Shown one piece after another: positions 399 to 10,122 of a DNA stretch of 10,122 nt. The stretch's first letter is position 1, and each line of letters starts with the position of its first letter. The translations under genes and the position numbers were made by a program. The notes under the pieces were generated by a model that had not been told where the DNA came from, did not search any database, and was given only the letters and a program-made list of their open reading frames with translations. The DNA comes from Candidatus Thorarchaeota archaeon (lineage in GTDB: Archaea > Asgardarchaeota > Thorarchaeia > Thorarchaeales > Thorarchaeaceae): contig JBHLRQ010000112.1 in NCBI GenBank assembly GCA_048882385.1, positions 1 through 10,122 of the forward strand, given 5' to 3'.

Positions 399-1526
399 TT
401 GAAGCCAAGAGAGAGATTTCATCAAGCAGTAAATCATGAAGAACCTGACCGAGTTCCATTGGATTATTGGACAACATATGAAGCATACGAGAATCTTAGG
501 AATCACTTGGGAATCACAGCTCCTGAAACACATCGATGGGGGCTCTTTTCTGAATGGCAGACTTCAGAAGGACTACTGCAACGATTGAATGTTGACTTCA
601 GACATGTCCACATGAAAGCCTTAGCTGATTTTGAACCTAAACCACTCTCTGATGGATCTCTGGAGAGTGAATGGAAATATGGAACGAAGATCATTGGGGA
701 ATATGAGGAGGTCACATACTACCCTTGGGCAGACTTTACAGAAGTTCAACAAATAAATGAGTTTGACTGGCCTGATCCTGAGGAACCATCAAGGATGGAA
801 AGTGTTGGAGCATTAGCGAAAAAGCTTCATGAAGAAACTGATTATGCCGTAGTGGGTTATGGAGGAGGTCCATGGGGTATCGTGGAAATGCCTGCTCACT
901 TCATGAGAGGATTCGATAAGTTCCTTGTTGACCTGCTTCGCCGTCCGGACCTTGCTGAAGCAATGATGGAAAAGAGCATGAAACTGGCAATCGAAATGAA
1001 CCGGGTTTTCTTGGATGAGGTAGGTGAATACTTGGATATCTTCCAATTTGGTGATGACCTTGGTCATCAGAATGGACTTGTCATGAGTCCAAAATTGTAC
1101 AGGAACATGATTAAAGACCGACATAAGAAAATCTATGACGATATACACAGGCGAGCACCCCATGTTAAGATACTCCATCACACTTGTGGAGCAGTGGAGC
1201 CTTTGATACCGGATCTGATAGATGTCGGAGTGGACATTCTGAATCCCGTCCAACCCCTTGCAAAGGGTATGGATTCTGCTACCCTGAAAAAGAAATATGG
1301 TGACAAACTGACATTTCATGGAGGAATTGACATCCAACGTGTAATGGCTGCCCAAGGTTCAATAGAGGATGTTCGTGGAGAGGTTGATACTCGGATAGAT
1401 GCACTTGCCCATGGTGGCGGCTACATATTGGCACCTGCACATAACATTCAATCAGAGTCTACTCCAGAAAAAATCCTGGAATTGTATGATTATGCCTCAA
1501 AGAAAGGCATCTATCCCTTGAAGTAG
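399..1526 (+). CDS. Uroporphyrinogen decarboxylase superfamily protein (URO-D-like / MtaA-CmuA methylcobamide methyltransferase-like), not canonical HemE
   Basis: N-terminal MKPRERF...HEEPDRVP, then GDDLG, HHTCG (H-x-C metal motif), ILNPVQ, FHGGIDIQ and GGGYILAPAHNIQ. The HemE RQAGR motif is absent. TTG start with AGGA upstream. Confidence 0.88.
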   Translation: MKPRERFHQAVNHEEPDRVPLDYWTTYEAYENLRNHLGITAPETHRWGLFSEWQTSEGLLQRLNVDFRHVHMKALADFEPKPLSDGSLESEWKYGTKIIGEYEEVTYYPWADFTEVQQINEFDWPDPEEPSRMESVGALAKKLHEETDYAVVGYGGGPWGIVEMPAHFMRGFDKFLVDLLRRPDLAEAMMEKSMKLAIEMNRVFLDEVGEYLDIFQFGDDLGHQNGLVMSPKLYRNMIKDRHKKIYDDIHRRAPHVKILHHTCGAVEPLIPDLIDVGVDILNPVQPLAKGMDSATLKKKYGDKLTFHGGIDIQRVMAAQGSIEDVRGEVDTRIDALAHGGGYILAPAHNIQSESTPEKILELYDYASKKGIYPLK

Positions 1527-3450: not shown

Positions 3451-3905
3451 TTTTCCTGAGTATCTCGAATGAACTCTTTAGTTTCCTTAGCAGAAAGGCG
3501 TTTGAATAGTAGGTCCTTAGGCACAAACTCAACTTGACTGACCTCATCATCACTAGGCACAAGATCCTCACCTGTTCCAATATATTCGACCAAGAACATC
3601 GTAGTTTCCTGTTTGTCAAATCCTATTTCATCTCTGATTTCACGGGGAAAATCAAAGCGAACCTTGTCCTCGTATTCCCTGACAATCCTAAACTGGTTTG
3701 ATCCTGTTTCTTCTCTGAGTTCTCTCATAATTGCTTCAAGATTGGACTCGTCGCTTTCTATGACTCCACCTCCTGGAATATGCCATTCAAGTGGTATATC
3801 TACTGGTCCATTTGGCGAATCCATTAGTTTCACCTTACCCACCAGTAGGAATTTATCACCACTGAAGACAATTGCTCCGACTGCTTTTCTGATCATGTGC
3901 ATCAA
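3447..3905 (-). CDS. NUDIX hydrolase, RppH/Ap4A-hydrolase-like
   Basis: Nudix box G-VIESD-E-SNLEAIM-RELREETG. Downstream RFDFP...KQETTMFLVEY.G resembles the RppH subfamily. The start may be ATG 3902 or 3896. Its stop overlaps the convergent SnoaL stop by 4 nt. Confidence 0.9.
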   Translation of the reverse strand: MMHMIRKAVGAIVFSGDKFLLVGKVKLMDSPNGPVDIPLEWHIPGGGVIESDESNLEAIMRELREETGSNQFRIVREYEDKVRFDFPREIRDEIGFDKQETTMFLVEYIGTGEDLVPSDDEVSQVEFVPKDLLFKRLSAKETKEFIRDTQEN

Positions 3906-3960
3906 ACCTATTTTCTCTAGATGTATGTCTTGAAGTAAATGAAACTATTCTATAGGTTGT

Positions 3961-3972
3961 GAAAGACTTATC
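3961..3972 (+). promoter_or_regulatory. Putative BRE/TATA (GAAAGACTTATC) for the methyltransferase gene
   Basis: Same AAAG-W-C-W-TA-W pattern as at 2538-2547 and 8876-8885, each upstream of a + strand gene. Confidence 0.4.
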
Positions 3973-4006
3973 ATCATCTTCTGAAATCTGTGCCATTTAA
4001 TCACCA

Positions 4007-5302
4007 GTGATTAGGAGATGGAGAGTGCCTTCTACAGAAGATGTTCTGTGTTTCTATTGCAATGAATATTTGAAACTAGTTAAAGAGTATCCAGTGAATC
4101 ATGCGACTAACGATGTTCATACCTTTACTCCACGCTGTCATCTTCATTGGAAATATGAATGCGAAAATTGCGGGAATTTGAGGCACTTCAATGGAATTGC
4201 TTGGTGTTCAGATTGCCAGACATTTACCTGTGTCCACTGTGCAGATGAACAAATGGTCAGAAAGAAATTCTTGGTCTATGATTACTACTACAAAATACCC
4301 TGTCAGAAATGCGGGAAGTATAATCCTGCTTTAGACTATGCAGAATATAATGGCGATCATCCAGTACAGCTGGGTGATCTTCGATTAGATGAAGTCAACG
4401 TTTGGAGTTGCGTTTCCAAGGAGGGAGTTACATCTCGAGAATTCCCCAATCAGGCGTGGGGTTCTGAAAGGATTCTCTCACTTGGAAAAAGTCTTGTTAC
4501 TATGCGACTGGAATCTCTCGATGAATACAATCCCAAGTCAGCATGGGATATGATGGCTCCACATTGGCTATCTGTTGAAGAAGAGAATTACCACCATAAG
4601 TTCAGGATACTACCGGATGTGTATCGAATGCTTGATGCGCGGAAGGGTGATGAGATACTAGATGTTGCTTGTGGGAAGGGTGATGTTGCTAGACATCTTG
4701 CGCAAAATGGAGCAAGGGTGACTGGTATTGATATTTCAAAAATGCTGGACTATGCAATTGAGTATGAGGAACAGGAGCCTCTAGGAATAAGGTACCTTCA
4801 ATTGAATGCTGAGAAATTATCGGGGACGTTTGATAATGCCTTCTTCGACAAAGTAGTATGTAATATGGCTTTGATGGACATGGAGAATTTCAAGACAGTA
4901 ATTCAACAAATATCATATTTACTCAAAGAAGATGGTGTCTTTGTCTTCAGTATCCTTCATCCTGCTTTCTCATTTCCAGCTACAAGGGGAATTCGAGTGC
5001 CACACGATAGCGATAGAAATGAGGATCGAATAAGAGTCATCATAGACTATTTTGATGAAAGACCTGTACTCTTCAACATCAAGGGTGAGGTGTTTCCCGA
5101 CGCAAATTATCTCCTCCATTTTCAAAGACCTATCAGCTCATATCTCAATGAACTAGCAAAGAACAACCTCGTCTTGTATGAAACTAGCGAACCAAAAGCT
5201 TCTGAGGAGTTAGTCCACAAATTCCCAAGGAGTGCCTATTGGGATGATGAGAGAAGACCTGAATTTCTTATTGTGAAAGTGGTGAAGAAGTCGGGTATCT
5301 AA
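4007..5302 (+). CDS. Class I SAM-dependent methyltransferase with an N-terminal multi-zinc-finger domain
   Basis: Motif I EILDVACGKG, then VTGIDIS, FDKVVCNMALMD and LLKEDGVFVFS. The N-terminus has C15xxC18, C44xxH47, C52xxC55, C67xxC70, C75xxC78 and C99xxC102. The likely true start is GTG 4025, after AGGAGATGGAGA. Confidence 0.9.
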   Translation: MIRRWRVPSTEDVLCFYCNEYLKLVKEYPVNHATNDVHTFTPRCHLHWKYECENCGNLRHFNGIAWCSDCQTFTCVHCADEQMVRKKFLVYDYYYKIPCQKCGKYNPALDYAEYNGDHPVQLGDLRLDEVNVWSCVSKEGVTSREFPNQAWGSERILSLGKSLVTMRLESLDEYNPKSAWDMMAPHWLSVEEENYHHKFRILPDVYRMLDARKGDEILDVACGKGDVARHLAQNGARVTGIDISKMLDYAIEYEEQEPLGIRYLQLNAEKLSGTFDNAFFDKVVCNMALMDMENFKTVIQQISYLLKEDGVFVFSILHPAFSFPATRGIRVPHDSDRNEDRIRVIIDYFDERPVLFNIKGEVFPDANYLLHFQRPISSYLNELAKNNLVLYETSEPKASEELVHKFPRSAYWDDERRPEFLIVKVVKKSGI

Positions 5303-5486
5303 TCTACACCTCTGATTTAGCGAAGCTTGTTGAAGACGCATTCTAAATAGGGGACGAAAAGGATTGAATTGTCGAATTCCACTGAAAAGCCGTGAAGACA
5401 TTGGAGCTTTTTTCCTAAATGCTGCGTTGAAGTGCACTATTAAATTCCAGTCAGTCTGCTTTTTCGACCAAATAAGGTGACTACTA

Positions 5487-6434
5487 ATGAGGTGGAAGAT
5501 GGGAGCGTTTCATAGTCGAAAGATTCTAGGTCTATGTTTACTGTCCATTCTGGGATTTATACTTCTTACACCGACACCATCGGTAGCAGTAGTTGAACAT
5601 GATGATCTGACTGGTGTTAAAGTTGCTATCTATAATGGAGAAGGTGTGATGATTTCTAGTCGCACAGCACTAACAAGGATGTTTGAATGGATGAACGCAT
5701 CAGTTGAAGAAGTCAATGCTTCTCAAATTCTTGATGGCATCCTTGATGATTACGATATGCTTGTTATTCCTGGTGGATCAGAAACCATTTGTTGTAGTGA
5801 ACTTGATTATATTGAAGGAGTCCGGAAGATTCAGGATTTCGTTAGAAATGGTGGTTCGTATTTTGGTATCTGTGGTGGAGCAACCTATGGGGCGAACTAT
5901 GTAGATTTCTTTAATGGTTCTATGAGCCCAGTGTCTGAACCAGGATCATTAATTCATATGACTACCATGAATGTTAACCAGTCTTCAAATGGGCCTGAAC
6001 TCTCTGACCTACCTGTTAGTTTCGCTACAATGTATTATGGATCTCAATGCTTCATTCCAAGGGCGGGATTTGCAGTACACATTGTAGCCTCTTACGAATA
6101 TAATGACGAAGCTGGAATGATTGCTTTTGAATATGGAAATGGAACAGTCTTCCTTTCGAGTCCCCATCCTGAATATGAGGAAGATAGCGATAGAGATGAC
6201 ACAACATTTGGCGATGATCTTGATGATCCTGAATCAGAGTGGGATCTTCTGCTAAGAGTTTCAAAATGGCTTATTGAGTCCTCTTATGTTGAACCATCGG
6301 GTTCAACAACGACGTCTACGCCCACGCCCACAGCAATCAATACTCTTGATTTGCCGATCATTGCTGTTGCTTCAGCAGGCAGCATAATAGCTGTGTTGGT
6401 TGTTGCTGTTTTCTATCGAAGAATGAATGCATGA
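5487..6434 (+). CDS. Secreted, C-terminally membrane-anchored BPL_N (class I glutamine amidotransferase-like) domain protein
   Basis: Signal-peptide-like N-terminus. Core motifs VAIYNGEG, YDMLVIPGG, IQDFVRNGGSYFGICGGA and GNGTVFLSSPHPE. Ser/Thr/Pro linker, TM helix and RR tail at the C-terminus. AAGGTGA RBS at 5474-5480. Confidence 0.85.
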   Translation: MRWKMGAFHSRKILGLCLLSILGFILLTPTPSVAVVEHDDLTGVKVAIYNGEGVMISSRTALTRMFEWMNASVEEVNASQILDGILDDYDMLVIPGGSETICCSELDYIEGVRKIQDFVRNGGSYFGICGGATYGANYVDFFNGSMSPVSEPGSLIHMTTMNVNQSSNGPELSDLPVSFATMYYGSQCFIPRAGFAVHIVASYEYNDEAGMIAFEYGNGTVFLSSPHPEYEEDSDRDDTTFGDDLDDPESEWDLLLRVSKWLIESSYVEPSGSTTTSTPTPTAINTLDLPIIAVASAGSIIAVLVVAVFYRRMNA

Positions 6435-6513
6435 AACTGCGCAAGTGAACAAGTTTATGGTCACTGAATTTCAGAATCAACCTAGGGCAGTAATCACTCA
6501 ATGGGGATTCGTC

Positions 6514-7491
6514 ATGAAATCCGCAGAAAACGTAATAATTCCAGAGATACGCGAGCTAAGGTTAGATGAAACTGATGACTTCATTACACTCTTGGAGTTA
6601 GGATTCAAGGGCAGCATTGAAGAGGACAGGCTTGACACAGATGAACTACGGAAGCTAATAAAGAAGATACGTACGCCTGTCTACAAGTTTCTTCAAAGAG
6701 TTGTAGGAATGAGAATGGAGTTCTACATTGCTATAGTGGACAGCACCATTGCAAGTGGAATTCAATTGAATATCGAGAAGGATGAAGTCTATGTTGGTAA
6801 TCTCGCGACACATCCAAACTATCGCCGGCAAGGACTTGCAAGAAAGTTGCTTCATCTATCTTTCGAACGAGCTCGTGAGTTAGATATGACGAAAGTGAGA
6901 CTTGATGCAAGAGCTCTGAATATCAGCGCAGTAAATCTGTACGCCTCTGAGGGTTTCGAAACAACATATCACTCAGGTCGTTTTGAGCTAAACTCTATGA
7001 TTGAAAGAACTACGCACACTTCCAATGATTTGATTCTCCGTGAAGTTAGCAAAATTCCGACACCCGACATTGATGCGATGCTGGATGATTGTTTTCCAGC
7101 GTCATACTTGGAAGCAATCGGCCGTAAAAGATTCCGTAAGGATCTCGTTCCCTCAAGAGCCATCCGGTTCTTTGCAGGAAGACTTGCGGGGCAGTTAATT
7201 CACAACTATGCCTTCTATGTGAAGGGAGAGGAGAATCCTCGTGGAATCATAGAAGCATCTCAATCAAGAGTTGAAGAACGAATCCGTCTTTCATCACCGA
7301 TTCTGTTTGAGAAGGACAATGACCTGTTGTTGGAAGTCATCCCCAAGGTTCTCGAAATAGAAACTGGCTATCGTGGAATAATGACCGCATCTATCAGCTG
7401 TTCAATGCATCGAAGCGATGCAATATCGAAAATTGAGAGTCTAGGTTTCAAGAAACTCCGTGAAAGCATATCGATGACTAAACGACTCTAA
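6514..7491 (+). CDS. GNAT family N-acetyltransferase (one intact GNAT domain plus a degenerate second domain)
   Basis: VGNLATHPNYRRQGLARKLL (motif A) and NISAVNLYASEGF (motif B). The C-terminal AISKIESLGFKK echoes motif B. Start moved from 6427 to ATG 6514, which has a GGGGA RBS and a TATA-like CAAGTTTATG at 6450-6459. Confidence 0.87.
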   Translation: MKSAENVIIPEIRELRLDETDDFITLLELGFKGSIEEDRLDTDELRKLIKKIRTPVYKFLQRVVGMRMEFYIAIVDSTIASGIQLNIEKDEVYVGNLATHPNYRRQGLARKLLHLSFERARELDMTKVRLDARALNISAVNLYASEGFETTYHSGRFELNSMIERTTHTSNDLILREVSKIPTPDIDAMLDDCFPASYLEAIGRKRFRKDLVPSRAIRFFAGRLAGQLIHNYAFYVKGEENPRGIIEASQSRVEERIRLSSPILFEKDNDLLLEVIPKVLEIETGYRGIMTASISCSMHRSDAISKIESLGFKKLRESISMTKRL

Positions 7492-9717: not shown

Positions 9718-10122
9718 CTAGATCAATGTTTCAAGAATCTCAGCCACATCTTCAACATATTTCGGACAGTTGTCGAATGCACCCTTTTCGAAGGCTTCTT
9801 TCAAATCTTCTGCATCAGCTAAGTCATATTTGATTAGTTCTCTACATAATACCGAACCATGAATCTTGGTAAAATTTTCGAGAAGCGTATTTGCGGCTTG
9901 GAAGGCTTTCTCCTCCATCATTGACCCTCCGTACTTTAGTCCTAGAGCCATGATTGCTCCAGTCAGAGCTCCACACACATTGCCATTACTAGCTATACCT
10001 CCACCAAACCCAGATGCTATATTCATGCAGATATCAAAGTCAAGATTTCCAGAACTGAGGTGTACACCATAGGTAGCGAATATCGCTTGCGAACAAGAGC
10101 CTCTCTGTTCATCCATTATCTT
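9718..10122 (-). CDS. C_GCAxxG_C_C family putative redox-active protein, probably 5'-truncated by the window edge
   Basis: CSQAI...ASGFGGGI...VCGALTGA...GSVLCREL...NCPKYVE contains all four family Cys. The frame stays open (AAG ATA) to the window edge upstream of ATG 10116. Confidence 0.92.
   Translation of the reverse strand, partial: KIMDEQRGSCSQAIFATYGVHLSSGNLDFDICMNIASGFGGGIASNGNVCGALTGAIMALGLKYGGSMMEEKAFQAANTLLENFTKIHGSVLCRELIKYDLADAEDLKEAFEKGAFDNCPKYVEDVAEILETLI

Follow-up and report, generated by a model that had tools for sequence, protein, structure and literature searches.

Fusions of cross-brace zinc fingers with modifying enzymes are a hallmark of the chromatin and ubiquitin systems of eukaryotes. 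Combinations of a finger with a methyltransferase include MYND and SET in the SMYD proteins, the PHD clusters of MLL-family enzymes and the zinc finger of PRMT3. Fingers of the FYVE/rabphilin type have a cross-brace of eight Cys residues spaced approximately CxxC-x12-CxxC-x4-CxxC-xn-CxxC, are kin of PHD and RING fingers and are mostly eukaryotic. The basic motif of FYVE domains, R(R/K)HHCR, lies around the third Cys and binds PI3P. [quoted passage not shown] The same paper describes the UBR-box, a three-zinc domain of 70-80 residues with which eukaryotic N-recognins recognize N-degrons, as circularly permuted at its first knuckle and as having one ligand that bridges two metals.

Here we analyze an open reading frame in a stretch of 10,122 nucleotides (the window) from a Candidatus Thorarchaeota archaeon, which encodes two modules in one polypeptide (Table 1). 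The explanation that we favor, with a probability of roughly 0.62, is that a three-zinc domain, with two of the ions in an interleaved core, is fused to a methyltransferase and serves it as an interaction module.

An open reading frame with two modules

Table 1. Positions in the window of the open reading frame and its parts
Feature	Position	Strand	Residues	Basis
Whole open reading frame, read from the most upstream GTG (three-zinc domain, linker and class I SAM methyltransferase)	4007..5302	+		
GGAG-rich Shine-Dalgarno-like stretch, then likely true GTG start (4025-4027)	4013..4027	+		Sequence and homologue starts
Putative zinc site 1	4049..4147	+	C15, C18 and C44, H47	Invariant ligands; predicted secondary structure
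Putative binuclear cross-brace core, sites 2 and 3	4160..4312	+	Site 2: C52, C55 and C75, C78; site 3: C67, C70 and C99, C102	Co-loss, strand order, weak superpositions
Conserved C-terminal segment of zinc domain, N-P-A-L-D-x-A-E-x-x-G-x-H-P-x-Q	4313..4414	+	103-136	Alignment
Low-confidence linker from zinc domain to methyltransferase	4415..4462	+	137-152	AF2 pLDDT
Class I SAM-dependent methyltransferase with N-terminal helices and C-terminal beta extension	4469..5299	+	155-431	Pfam, PDB profile, Foldseek
Pfam Methyltransf_11 core	4658-4948	+	218-314	PF08241

Downstream of an in-frame stop (TAA at 3998), translation of window positions 4007-5299 on the + strand gives 431 amino acids including an N-terminal extension, or 425 when started at 4025. 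The GTG at 4025 is probably the true start codon, because its product (M-P-S-T-E-D-V-L-C-F-Y-C) matches the starts of homologues, which begin M-x-S-S-E-x-x-x-C-F-Y-C eight residues ahead of the first Cys, and because GGAG repeats precede it. We nevertheless number residues from 4007 throughout. The database gene call for this protein begins at M83, and the zinc domain is missed by gene callers because the start codon is GTG. The stretch is spanned by contigs of four independent public runs, which contain no indels and leave every ligand codon unchanged.

The initial annotation had placed 12 putative ligands in six CxxC/CxxH pairs, and the translation has them at exactly the codons claimed: C15-F-Y-C18, C44-H-L-H47, C52-E-N-C55, C67-S-D-C70, C75-V-H-C78 and C99-Q-K-C102. 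Their spacing is CxxC-x25-CxxH-x4-CxxC-x11-CxxC-x4-CxxC-x20-CxxC, from the first ligand codon at nt 4049-4051 to the last at 4310-4312, and that of the last four pairs (nt 4160-4312) is as annotated. Residues 15-102 hold 11 of the 14 Cys of the protein. A homologue search returned 67 matches of ∼420 amino acids each, and we aligned the window protein with 59 of them, leaving out eight that are N-terminally short or truncated (P0018, P0020, P0062 and P0064-P0068). All 12 ligands are invariant among these 60 sequences at a mean column identity of 60%; judged from this alignment, such invariance lies far beyond chance.

AF2 models the full-length protein with a mean pLDDT of 86.0 and a pTM of 0.80. 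The N-domain is modeled confidently (pLDDT 88.2; 107 of its 140 residues reach at least 90), with C15/C18 at the start of a helix (residues 16-24) and C44/H47 in a knuckle ahead of the first of seven strands (49-51, 58-60, 64-67, 72-75, 82-88, 91-98 and 105-108). An aromatic beta-hairpin with the motif YDYYY (residues 82-98) separates C75/C78 from C99/C102, and C102 lies three residues ahead of the last strand. In the segment that follows, L109, D110, E113, H118 and P119 are invariant in clade I and Q121 is nearly so; L109, E113, H118 and P119 reach at least 85% conservation over the full set of representatives, and the segment is also kept in a subfamily without the methyltransferase. Confidence then falls, the ten-residue blocks of residues 131-160 having mean pLDDT values of 63, 45 and 53 and residues 143-152 lying below 50. 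Across 60 homologues the zinc domain has a median net charge of -4 (range -11 to 0) and 16.8% aromatic residues, and R43 is its only invariant basic residue.

The claimed fusion to a SAM methyltransferase is real, and the enzyme domain is intact. PF08241 (Methyltransf_11) matches with 64.8 bits against a cut-off of 21.2 (E 1.2e-17) and PF13649 with 60.8 bits against 27, and these family models place the domain in class I. Motif I reads I-L-D-V-A-C-G-K-G (residues 217-225) and is followed by G-I-D-I-S (residues 240-244); D219, G223 and G225 show no variation, and D242 is conserved to at least 95%. The model has a Rossmann-like fold with an acidic residue after strand 2, and Foldseek matches it with probability 1.00 to 3bkw, 3g5l and many other class I enzymes (3bkw with E 1.1e-15 and a TM on target of 0.81-0.83). 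A PDB profile search likewise retrieves 3g5l (1.2e-23) and 3bkw (8.6e-21) over positions 200-420. Both 3BKW, from Mesorhizobium loti, and 3G5L, from Listeria monocytogenes, share this class I fold, and the C-terminal beta extension with it (Foldseek E ∼1e-15, TM 0.79-0.83), but they are proteins of 219-253 residues without a zinc domain and are 24-26% identical to this methyltransferase. They are structural-genomics entries whose titles state no substrate, and a full-text literature search on the two codes returned nothing relevant.

Proposed pairing of the zinc ligands

The domain probably binds three zinc ions. We propose that site 1 would combine C15 and C18 at the helix start with C44 and H47 of the knuckle, and that sites 2 and 3 would form an interleaved, binuclear RING-like treble-clef core. 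In this core the knuckle pair C52/C55 would join C75/C78 in site 2, while C67/C70, in the turn of the intervening beta-hairpin, would join C99/C102, which follow the long aromatic hairpin, in site 3. We infer this pairing from the order of the strands, from weak superpositions and from ligands that are lost together in relatives.

Co-loss was counted in the 60 of 95 representative rows that span all ligand columns, with the last four pairs named C (C52/C55), D (C67/C70), E (C75/C78) and F (C99/C102). C15/C18 is intact in 59 of the 60 rows and C44/H47 in all 60. Both ligands of pair F are gone in 15 of the 60, and all 15 of these have a degraded pair D alongside intact pairs C and E. The five rows that lack both ligands of pair D likewise retain pairs C and E in full. 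In four rows only C52, C55, C75 and C78 remain beyond site 1, suggesting that these four residues form one site. The state of pair F changes four times on trees built from the methyltransferase only (bootstrap range 3-4; well-supported branches force at least two), suggesting that site 3 was lost more than once with C and E retained. An independent-pairs test of co-loss (C67 versus pair F) had too few pairs for any signal. In three representative rows C78 is lost with pair F intact, which shows that site 2 is not inviolable. The joint decay of pairs D and F with retention of C and E points to C15/C18 with C44/H47, C52/C55 with C75/C78, and C67/C70 with C99/C102 as the three sites.

The structural comparisons are consistent with this pairing. 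The best superpositions, all of them weak, are to the ZZ domains of p62 and p300, the PHD finger of MORF, the ZnF-UBP of Ubp8 and the FYVE-type fingers of Rim2, EEA1 and rabphilin; the MORF PHD finger aligns over 41 residues at 1.9 Å (model residues 50-103, a weak match) and the p62 ZZ domain over 48 of 50 residues at 3.0 Å (model residues 45-111, likewise weak). In the model a knuckle is followed by a hairpin whose turn bears ligands, then by a ligand pair, a second hairpin, another ligand pair and a strand, an order that fits the treble-clef class as PMC4506424 describes it.

A sequential topology of three independent zinc ribbons or LIM-like fingers (C15/C18 with C44/H47, C52/C55 with C67/C70, and C75/C78 with C99/C102) would be suggested by the CxxC-x20-CxxC arrangement around a beta-hairpin, which is typical of a zinc ribbon, and by sub-threshold matches of Pfam Zn_ribbon_Elf1 to residues 71-105 (C75 to C102) in 23 of 43 family members (best E 0.0084). 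The top PDB profile matches are LIM domains, those of EPLIN (E 0.038) and FHL1 (E 0.071). However, neither LIM match is significant, and the co-loss contradicts sequential pairing. Under such pairing, the 15 of 60 rows in which pair F is gone with pair E intact and the five in which pair D is gone with pair C intact would mean conserved orphan half-sites; loss of pair F recurs on the tree; and the ZZ and PHD superpositions cover C52 to C102 as a single unit. We thus regard sequential fingers as quite unlikely. The interleaved arrangement of the last four pairs is supported by these comparisons, mainly by the evolutionary pattern.

Family membership and distribution

The zinc domain comprises ∼125 residues and has no name in Pfam and NCBIfam. 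The initial annotation had described it as a three-zinc, FYVE/RING-like cross-brace module. The cross-brace part of that claim is favored by the co-loss of D with F and by the weak superpositions on cross-brace folds, whereas membership of the FYVE, ZZ, RING, PHD or B-box families was not found at the Pfam threshold in any of 43 family members, among the matches listed (25 of 64 families). An NCBIfam scan of the domain returned 0 families, phmmer and profile searches of the PDB with the N-domain gave nothing better than E 0.03, and a search of the ESM Atlas with the N-domain gave scores of at most 0.88 and no family. The domain does not match the ZZ family model (PF00569) at the Pfam threshold; the ligands of that family are CCCCCCHH in PMC4506424. 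B-box models match below threshold (ANCHR-like in 7 of 43 members, best E 0.076; Trim66 in 5 of 43, best E 0.05; PML B-box1 with E 1.9), and we do not assign the domain to this family because of these scores and because its ligand motif is all-Cys where PMC4506424 gives CC/HCCCCHH. Of Prok-RING_1 to _4, only Prok-RING_2 appears among the matches listed (25 of 64 families), in 2 of 43 members with a best E of 0.022, and the UBR-box Pfam family is absent from the same matches. Our literature searches, outside which lay the survey of prokaryotic binuclear treble clefs by Burroughs et al. 2011, found no account of the domain, nor does it occur in a term search of PMC12962969 and PMC13734099.

The domain is rare, with 95 representatives in a profile search of 1.84 billion proteins; the representatives carry no taxon labels. 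Asgard genomes carry it most often (77 of 301), and it is also found outside Asgard in genomes labeled Thermoplasmata and Bathyarchaeia. The annotation's surmise of an Asgard-like host agrees with the source names on the homologues. The same methyltransferase architecture is present in 20 of 33 scanned representatives. No fusion to a GNAT, for which the annotation had proposed to look, was seen. In one small subfamily (P0089 and P0093) the zinc domain is joined to an unrelated, unnamed C-terminal domain in place of the methyltransferase; a search with this domain from P0089 retrieved only P0089 itself.

No neighbor of the gene in the window is common to 43 related loci, and neither a conserved partner gene nor a conserved metabolic gene cluster surrounds the family. 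Neighbors are shared only within a Heimdall-labeled subset, where they are a small GTPase-like gene, Xth, an MFS transporter, an ArsR/permease/thioredoxin set, a GNAT-like gene and a small methyltransferase. The GNAT of the window and the Heimdall GNAT-like neighbor have only the GNAT core in common (hhalign probability 90.7%) and differ in architecture.

Role of the zinc domain and comparison with known systems

We see directly that the two modules are fused, that the ligands follow a conserved pattern and that the SAM-binding motifs are intact. With lower confidence, we propose that the three-zinc domain, tethered by a flexible linker to an intact, 3BKW/3G5L-type class I SAM methyltransferase, may be a rigid, acidic and aromatic-rich interaction module that would recruit a cationic or protein/peptide partner for the catalytic domain or contribute to its binding site. 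Because it also occurs on the unrelated C-terminal domain of P0089 and P0093, the zinc domain seems to behave as a portable module. It may act, as the initial annotation suggested, as a "reader" that targets the methyltransferase to a substrate. In a more specific and unlikely version of this role, the domain would recognize a cationic protein segment (a chromatin, ribosomal or cytoskeletal tail or N-terminus) by way of an acidic and aromatic-rich face made up of the YDYYY hairpin and the L-D-x-x-E...H-P-x-Q segment and hand it to the methyltransferase, forming an archaeal, Asgard-enriched reader-writer based on a cross-brace that arose independently of or before the eukaryotic PHD/ZZ/MYND-methyltransferase architectures.

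Binding of lipids or nucleic acids is argued against by the acidic, aromatic-rich character of the domain, although we hold this with lower confidence as well. The spacing CxxC-x11-CxxC-x4-CxxC-x20-CxxC is near that of FYVE fingers and would fit a genuine FYVE domain anchoring the enzyme to phosphoinositide-containing membranes, and weak Foldseek rows to Rim2 (0.75), EEA1 (0.86) and rabphilin (1.3) as well as sub-threshold matches to FYVE_2 (PF02318, 6 of 43 members, best E 0.11) and FYVE (PF01363, 3 of 43, best E 1.4) point the same way. All of these Pfam matches are far below the gathering score, however, neither family is among the Pfam matches of the window protein itself, and the domain is acidic. 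The absence of R(R/K)HHCR, already remarked upon in the annotation, also holds in the family, as C67 is preceded by H-F-N-G-I-A-W, which is invariant or nearly so, with F-N-G-I-A-W replacing the basic motif. We therefore consider FYVE membership extremely improbable. Nucleic-acid binding is common among zinc ribbons and treble clefs, and the domain could in principle steer the enzyme to RNA or DNA as an rRNA, tRNA or DNA methyltransferase. This is very unlikely given the charge of the domain with its single invariant basic residue, and no RNA methyltransferase family reached its cut-off in Pfam and NCBIfam scans.

A possible reading, though on the unlikely side, is that the zinc domain, rather than being a reader, has a structural, oligomerization or regulatory part to play in a small-molecule methyltransferase, for example as an active-site lid or as a switch sensitive to redox state or zinc. 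The nearest characterized structural neighbors of the catalytic domain by Foldseek and PDB profile (ToxA, UbiG, RebM, AtmM and MitM) all act on small molecules, the pTM of the full-length model may mean a fixed arrangement of the domains, the zinc domain is conserved to a degree unusual for a mere tether, and its eleven Cys thiolates could respond to oxidants. Set against this are the low-confidence core of the linker, the occurrence of the zinc domain on a different C-terminal domain and the lack of a metabolic gene cluster conserved around the family.

What the locus offers is a rare, very strongly conserved and unnamed three-zinc domain with cross-brace ligand logic on a methyltransferase, mainly in Asgard archaea. 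Were it a protein reader, it would provide a compact prokaryotic model for the coupling of reader and writer and would point to a methylation target in the archaea most closely related to eukaryotes; were it no more than a structural cap for a small-molecule enzyme, it would still be a new zinc-domain family worth naming. The relatives without the third zinc site form a natural series that amounts to a ready-made mutagenesis experiment.

Like the RING-like fingers (ZZ, B-box, PHD, FYVE, ZnF-UBP and RING), the domain has a core of eight ligands in four pairs with a probable 1+3 / 2+4 pairing, its second pair in the turn of a hairpin after the first knuckle and its last pair just ahead of a beta-strand. 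Unlike them, it has a vestigial treble-clef helix, comprising three residues after C75/C78 in one AF2 model and absent from the other, and it extends beyond the core by an additional zinc site on the N-terminal side and a conserved helical segment on the C-terminal side. The last pair of ZZ and B-box fingers is His-His in PMC4506424, whereas here it is a CxxC after a 20-residue aromatic hairpin. The UBR-box of the same source is alike in concept, as a RING-like binuclear core with a third zinc held by extensions of the core, but the domain here has ∼125 residues, shows no sign of permutation and would draw its third site from the N-terminal extension alone. The candidate kinship to eukaryotic finger-plus-writer proteins put forward in the initial annotation reduces to analogy. 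Among the matches listed, no eukaryotic finger family with a name scored above its threshold on the domain. The eukaryotic enzymes likewise carry a zinc-stabilized module and a SAM-dependent methyltransferase on one chain, but their catalytic folds are SET or PRMT, whereas the fold here is the generic Rossmann fold of Methyltransf_11.

The open reading frame and its conserved ligands

The six pairs of putative zinc ligands lie exactly where the initial annotation had placed them, and the SAM methyltransferase that it took to be fused to them is matched on the same open reading frame (see the table; residues are numbered from the GTG at 4007). Of the 14 cysteines in the window protein, 11 fall within the 88-residue ligand stretch. 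A word-indexed homologue search with residues 1-140 (E <= 0.001) returned 67 proteins among 80 candidates, nearly all of ~420 aa and, where their source was labelled, from Thor-, Heimdall-, Hermod- or Promethearchaeota. Of these 67 hits, 59 went into an alignment with the window protein; eight that were short or N-terminally cut were omitted. In the resulting 60 sequences all twelve ligands are invariant, where a lack of conservation had been named as a possible refutation, and so are the zinc-domain residues Y17, Y21, Y28, N31, P42, R43, H60, F61, N62, G63, F88, Y91, Y95, L109, D110, E113, H118, P119 and W133. In the closest named homologue, the Thorarchaeota-labelled locus L001, TAG replaces the codon of the invariant Trp66 (GCT TAG TGT), which could be a pseudogene, a sequencing error or read-through; one genome of the phylum sample, G046, likewise has '1 TAG' inside its match.

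The library gene call for this gene (P0062, 349 aa) begins at the ATG of M83 and misses window 4007-4255, thereby cutting off most of the zinc domain, namely ligand pairs one to four and the greater part of pair five. The true start is a GTG, at 4025 or 4007. The former is the likelier because it yields M-P-S-T-E-D-V-L-C-F-Y-C, which resembles the homologue N-termini (M-x-S-S-E-x-x-x-C-F-Y-C), and is preceded by GGAG repeats. Family members P0064-P0068 (348-371 aa) may be mis-called in the same manner. In four public runs, drawn from three studies, contigs span nt 3900-5400 without an indel and without a substitution in a ligand codon.

Features of the zinc-methyltransferase gene, its product and the surrounding loci (window positions and residues of the window protein unless a locus is named; row counts refer to 60 aligned representatives)
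Feature	Position	Strand	Detail
ORF, zinc domain and methyltransferase	4007..5302	+	431 codons, translation
Six ligand pairs	nt 4049-4312	+	within first 102 residues
Pair A	C15xxC18		intact in 59/60 rows
Pair B	C44xxH47		intact in 60/60
Pair C	C52xxC55		intact in 60/60
Pair D	C67xxC70		Cys-Cys 20/60, Cys-His 1/60; C70 replaced in 39, C67 in 5
Pair E	C75xxC78		intact in 57/60
Pair F	C99xxC102		both ligands gone in 15/60
AF2 helix, from C15/C18	16-24
AF2 knuckle C44/H47, then strand	49-51
AF2 knuckle C52/C55, then strands	58-60, 64-67
AF2 turn carrying C67/C70, then strand and C75/C78	72-75
AF2 hairpin, then C99/C102	82-88/91-98
AF2 strand, then helices	105-108; 109-114, 119-122
Methyltransf_11 (Pfam)	residues 218-314	+	E 1.2e-17; 64.8 bits, cut-off 21.2
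TAG at Trp66 codon	L001:6172-6174
C_GCAxxG_C_C family genes (putative redox-active)	1-303; 9718-10122	+; -	at both window ends
URO-D family protein	399-1526	+	E 9.1e-28
BPL_N / glutamine-amidotransferase-like, membrane-anchored	5487-6434	+	8-base overlap with GNAT, same strand
GNAT	6427-7491	+	two genes downstream
GNAT	L004:7382-8359		adjoins the gene; 59% identical to window GNAT
Small GTPase-like, example	L026:3402-4097		upstream, same strand

Distribution, architectures and gene neighbourhood

A zinc-domain profile was built from the window and 42 loci (A3; L001 was left out because of its TAG) and retrieved only 95 of 1.84 billion representative proteins at E <= 0.001. Matches occur in 77 of 301 genomes of the same phylum (18 of 90 when only high-quality genomes are counted), in 4 of 24 other genomes of the window's genus, in 5 of 151 genomes from the class of the Thermoplasmata-labelled locus L043, one of them at just E 9.6e-4, and in 6 of 151 from the class of the Bathyarchaeia-labelled locus L041. 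Scores in the phylum sample form two classes, ~1e-60 and ~1e-26, both present in some genomes; the window genome (3.70 Mb, 256 contigs, 95.3% complete) carries the domain in one copy. By these genome counts the family is rare and patchy, most frequent in Asgard genomes and present outside that group too.

We scanned 33 of the 95 representatives against Pfam, picking longer proteins outside the window's clade and those with an odd domain position. Methyltransf_11 follows the zinc domain in 20; eight of the other 13 are <= 240 aa long and several of the 13 resemble frame-garbled high-GC calls. One protein of 676 aa (P0085) has two Methyltransf_11 domains after the zinc domain (~residues 181-292 and 469-565). 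Two others, P0089 and P0093, join it to an unrelated C-terminal region of ~190 residues that is conserved between them (29% identity overall), has no Pfam match, and as a query against the library retrieved itself alone. Their subfamily keeps all twelve ligands, with H60 changed to Trp and the YDYYY hairpin altered.

The window neighbours (C_GCAxxG_C_C, URO-D family, DUF4386, AHSA1-like, SnoaL-like, NUDIX, BPL_N-like, GNAT, LVIVD and DUF1801) include none common to the 43 related loci, except for two genes in the Thorarchaeota-labelled L004, and gene context does not help with function. The URO-D kind includes methylcobamide:CoM-type methyltransferases and has no evident link to the gene studied here. 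Of 44 loci, 15 have a GNAT acetyltransferase gene close by. In 13 of these, all Heimdall-labelled, it is convergent and adjoining, and it has only the GNAT core in common with that of the window (hhalign probability 90.7%); because GNATs are abundant, the proximity may be coincidence. The overlap of the window GNAT with the BPL_N-like gene suggests co-translation of those two. Upstream in 24 Heimdall-labelled loci, 150-3400 bases off, stands a small GTPase-like gene, the immediate neighbour in nine, which is probably lineage synteny.

Cross-brace or sequential pairing of the ligands

Pairs A and B would form site 1, and the remaining four could be interleaved as a cross-brace (C+E, D+F), as initially proposed, or coordinate sequentially (C+D, E+F). 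We aligned the 95 representatives to the domain profile and recorded pair states in the 60 rows that span all twelve ligand columns. In the 15 rows that have lost pair F, pair D is degraded in every one and pairs C and E are intact in every one. Four rows lack both D and F, so that beyond site 1 just C52, C55, C75 and C78 remain; in one such protein, P0100, reading the sequence revealed no displaced cysteine near the lost ligands. Under a sequential topology C and E would be conserved orphan half-sites in the F-less rows, whereas under a cross-brace these rows would have lost one complete site.

We built trees from the methyltransferase part alone, which keeps the ligand-trait columns out. Two clades were obtained: clade I, to which the window belongs, shows the full set of twelve ligands; in clade II C70 is absent except in the basal member. 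Within clade II the state of pair F changes four times. A quick tree had 31 rows; a more careful tree of 29 rows (P0085, P0077 and P0104 omitted) gives a bootstrap range of 3-4 changes, with at least two forced by well-supported branches. Because the rows are related, their counts are not independent events, but the pattern of loss and retention arose more than once. Against the cross-brace, C78 is lost in three rows in which pair F is intact. The retention of C and E where D and F decay favours the proposal of an interleaved module, and from the evolutionary co-loss we infer that C probably pairs with E and D with F.

Predicted fold, class and role of the zinc domain

AF2 models built on the 60-sequence alignment reached pLDDT 86.0 and pTM 0.80 at full length, and 88.2 and 0.81 for residues 1-140 (five models span 70.7-88.2). 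No Foldseek match to the zinc domain was found at E 0.001; the top weak rows were an Ada2 chain (0.18), KCMF1 zinc domains, the p300/CBP core and JADE1 PZP, and further Rim2, EEA1 FYVE and rabphilin. [quoted passage not shown]

That the domain might belong to an already named family was also considered, and no Pfam or NCBIfam model matches it at threshold. A scan of all 43 A3 members with E up to 10 gave, among the matches listed, nothing but scattered sub-threshold rows: the Elf1 ribbon in 23 members (best E 0.0084), the B-boxes of ANCHR in 7 and Trim66 in 5, FYVE_2 in 6, FYVE in 3, ZZ in 4 (best E 0.048) and Prok-RING_2 in 2, and a PDB profile search gave LIM domains (E 0.038 and 0.071) and PML B-box1 (E 1.9). 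Full-text search found no paper on the domain; Burroughs et al. 2011, reportedly the main survey of binuclear treble clefs in prokaryotes, may already describe it. FYVE fingers carry a basic motif, whereas here an invariant H-F-N-G-I-A-W stands in its place, in keeping with the initial observation that the PI3P-type motif is absent. The ZZ and B-box ligand motifs given in PMC4506424 end in His-His, in contrast to the Cys-Cys that follows a 20-residue hairpin here. On the basis of the sub-threshold scans and the replaced FYVE, ZZ and B-box motifs, we tentatively place the predicted domain in the binuclear treble-clef class, outside all its named families.

Across all 60 homologues the zinc domain is net acidic (median charge -4, range -11 to 0); it is 16.8% aromatic and has R43 as its sole invariant basic residue, which argues against phosphoinositide or nucleic-acid binding. 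Such a composition would fit either a cap shaping the active site or a surface facing a cationic or protein partner. Because linker residues 143-152 are modelled with low confidence in the full-length AF2 model and the domain occurs on another C-terminal domain, we favour a portable interaction module. The catalytic domain has the class I SAM motifs (glycine-rich I-L-D-V-A-C-G-K-G, acidic loop G-I-D-I-S) and is closest to the structural-genomics proteins 3G5L (E 1.2e-23) and 3BKW (8.6e-21), with Foldseek E ~1e-15. Next come the small-molecule enzymes ToxA, UbiG, RebM and AtmM, and with them some that act on proteins or peptides, CypM and Hvo_0019, a mixed list that leaves the substrate unfixed. 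Our best reading is that a predicted three-zinc module would recruit or shape the substrate of the fused methyltransferase, and a reader-writer role is possible.

According to PMC4506424, the UBR-box has a RING-like core whose extensions hold a third zinc, is circularly permuted with one ligand common to two metals, and was found by the authors of that paper in no prokaryote. By this description, it is the nearest concept to the zinc domain reported here.
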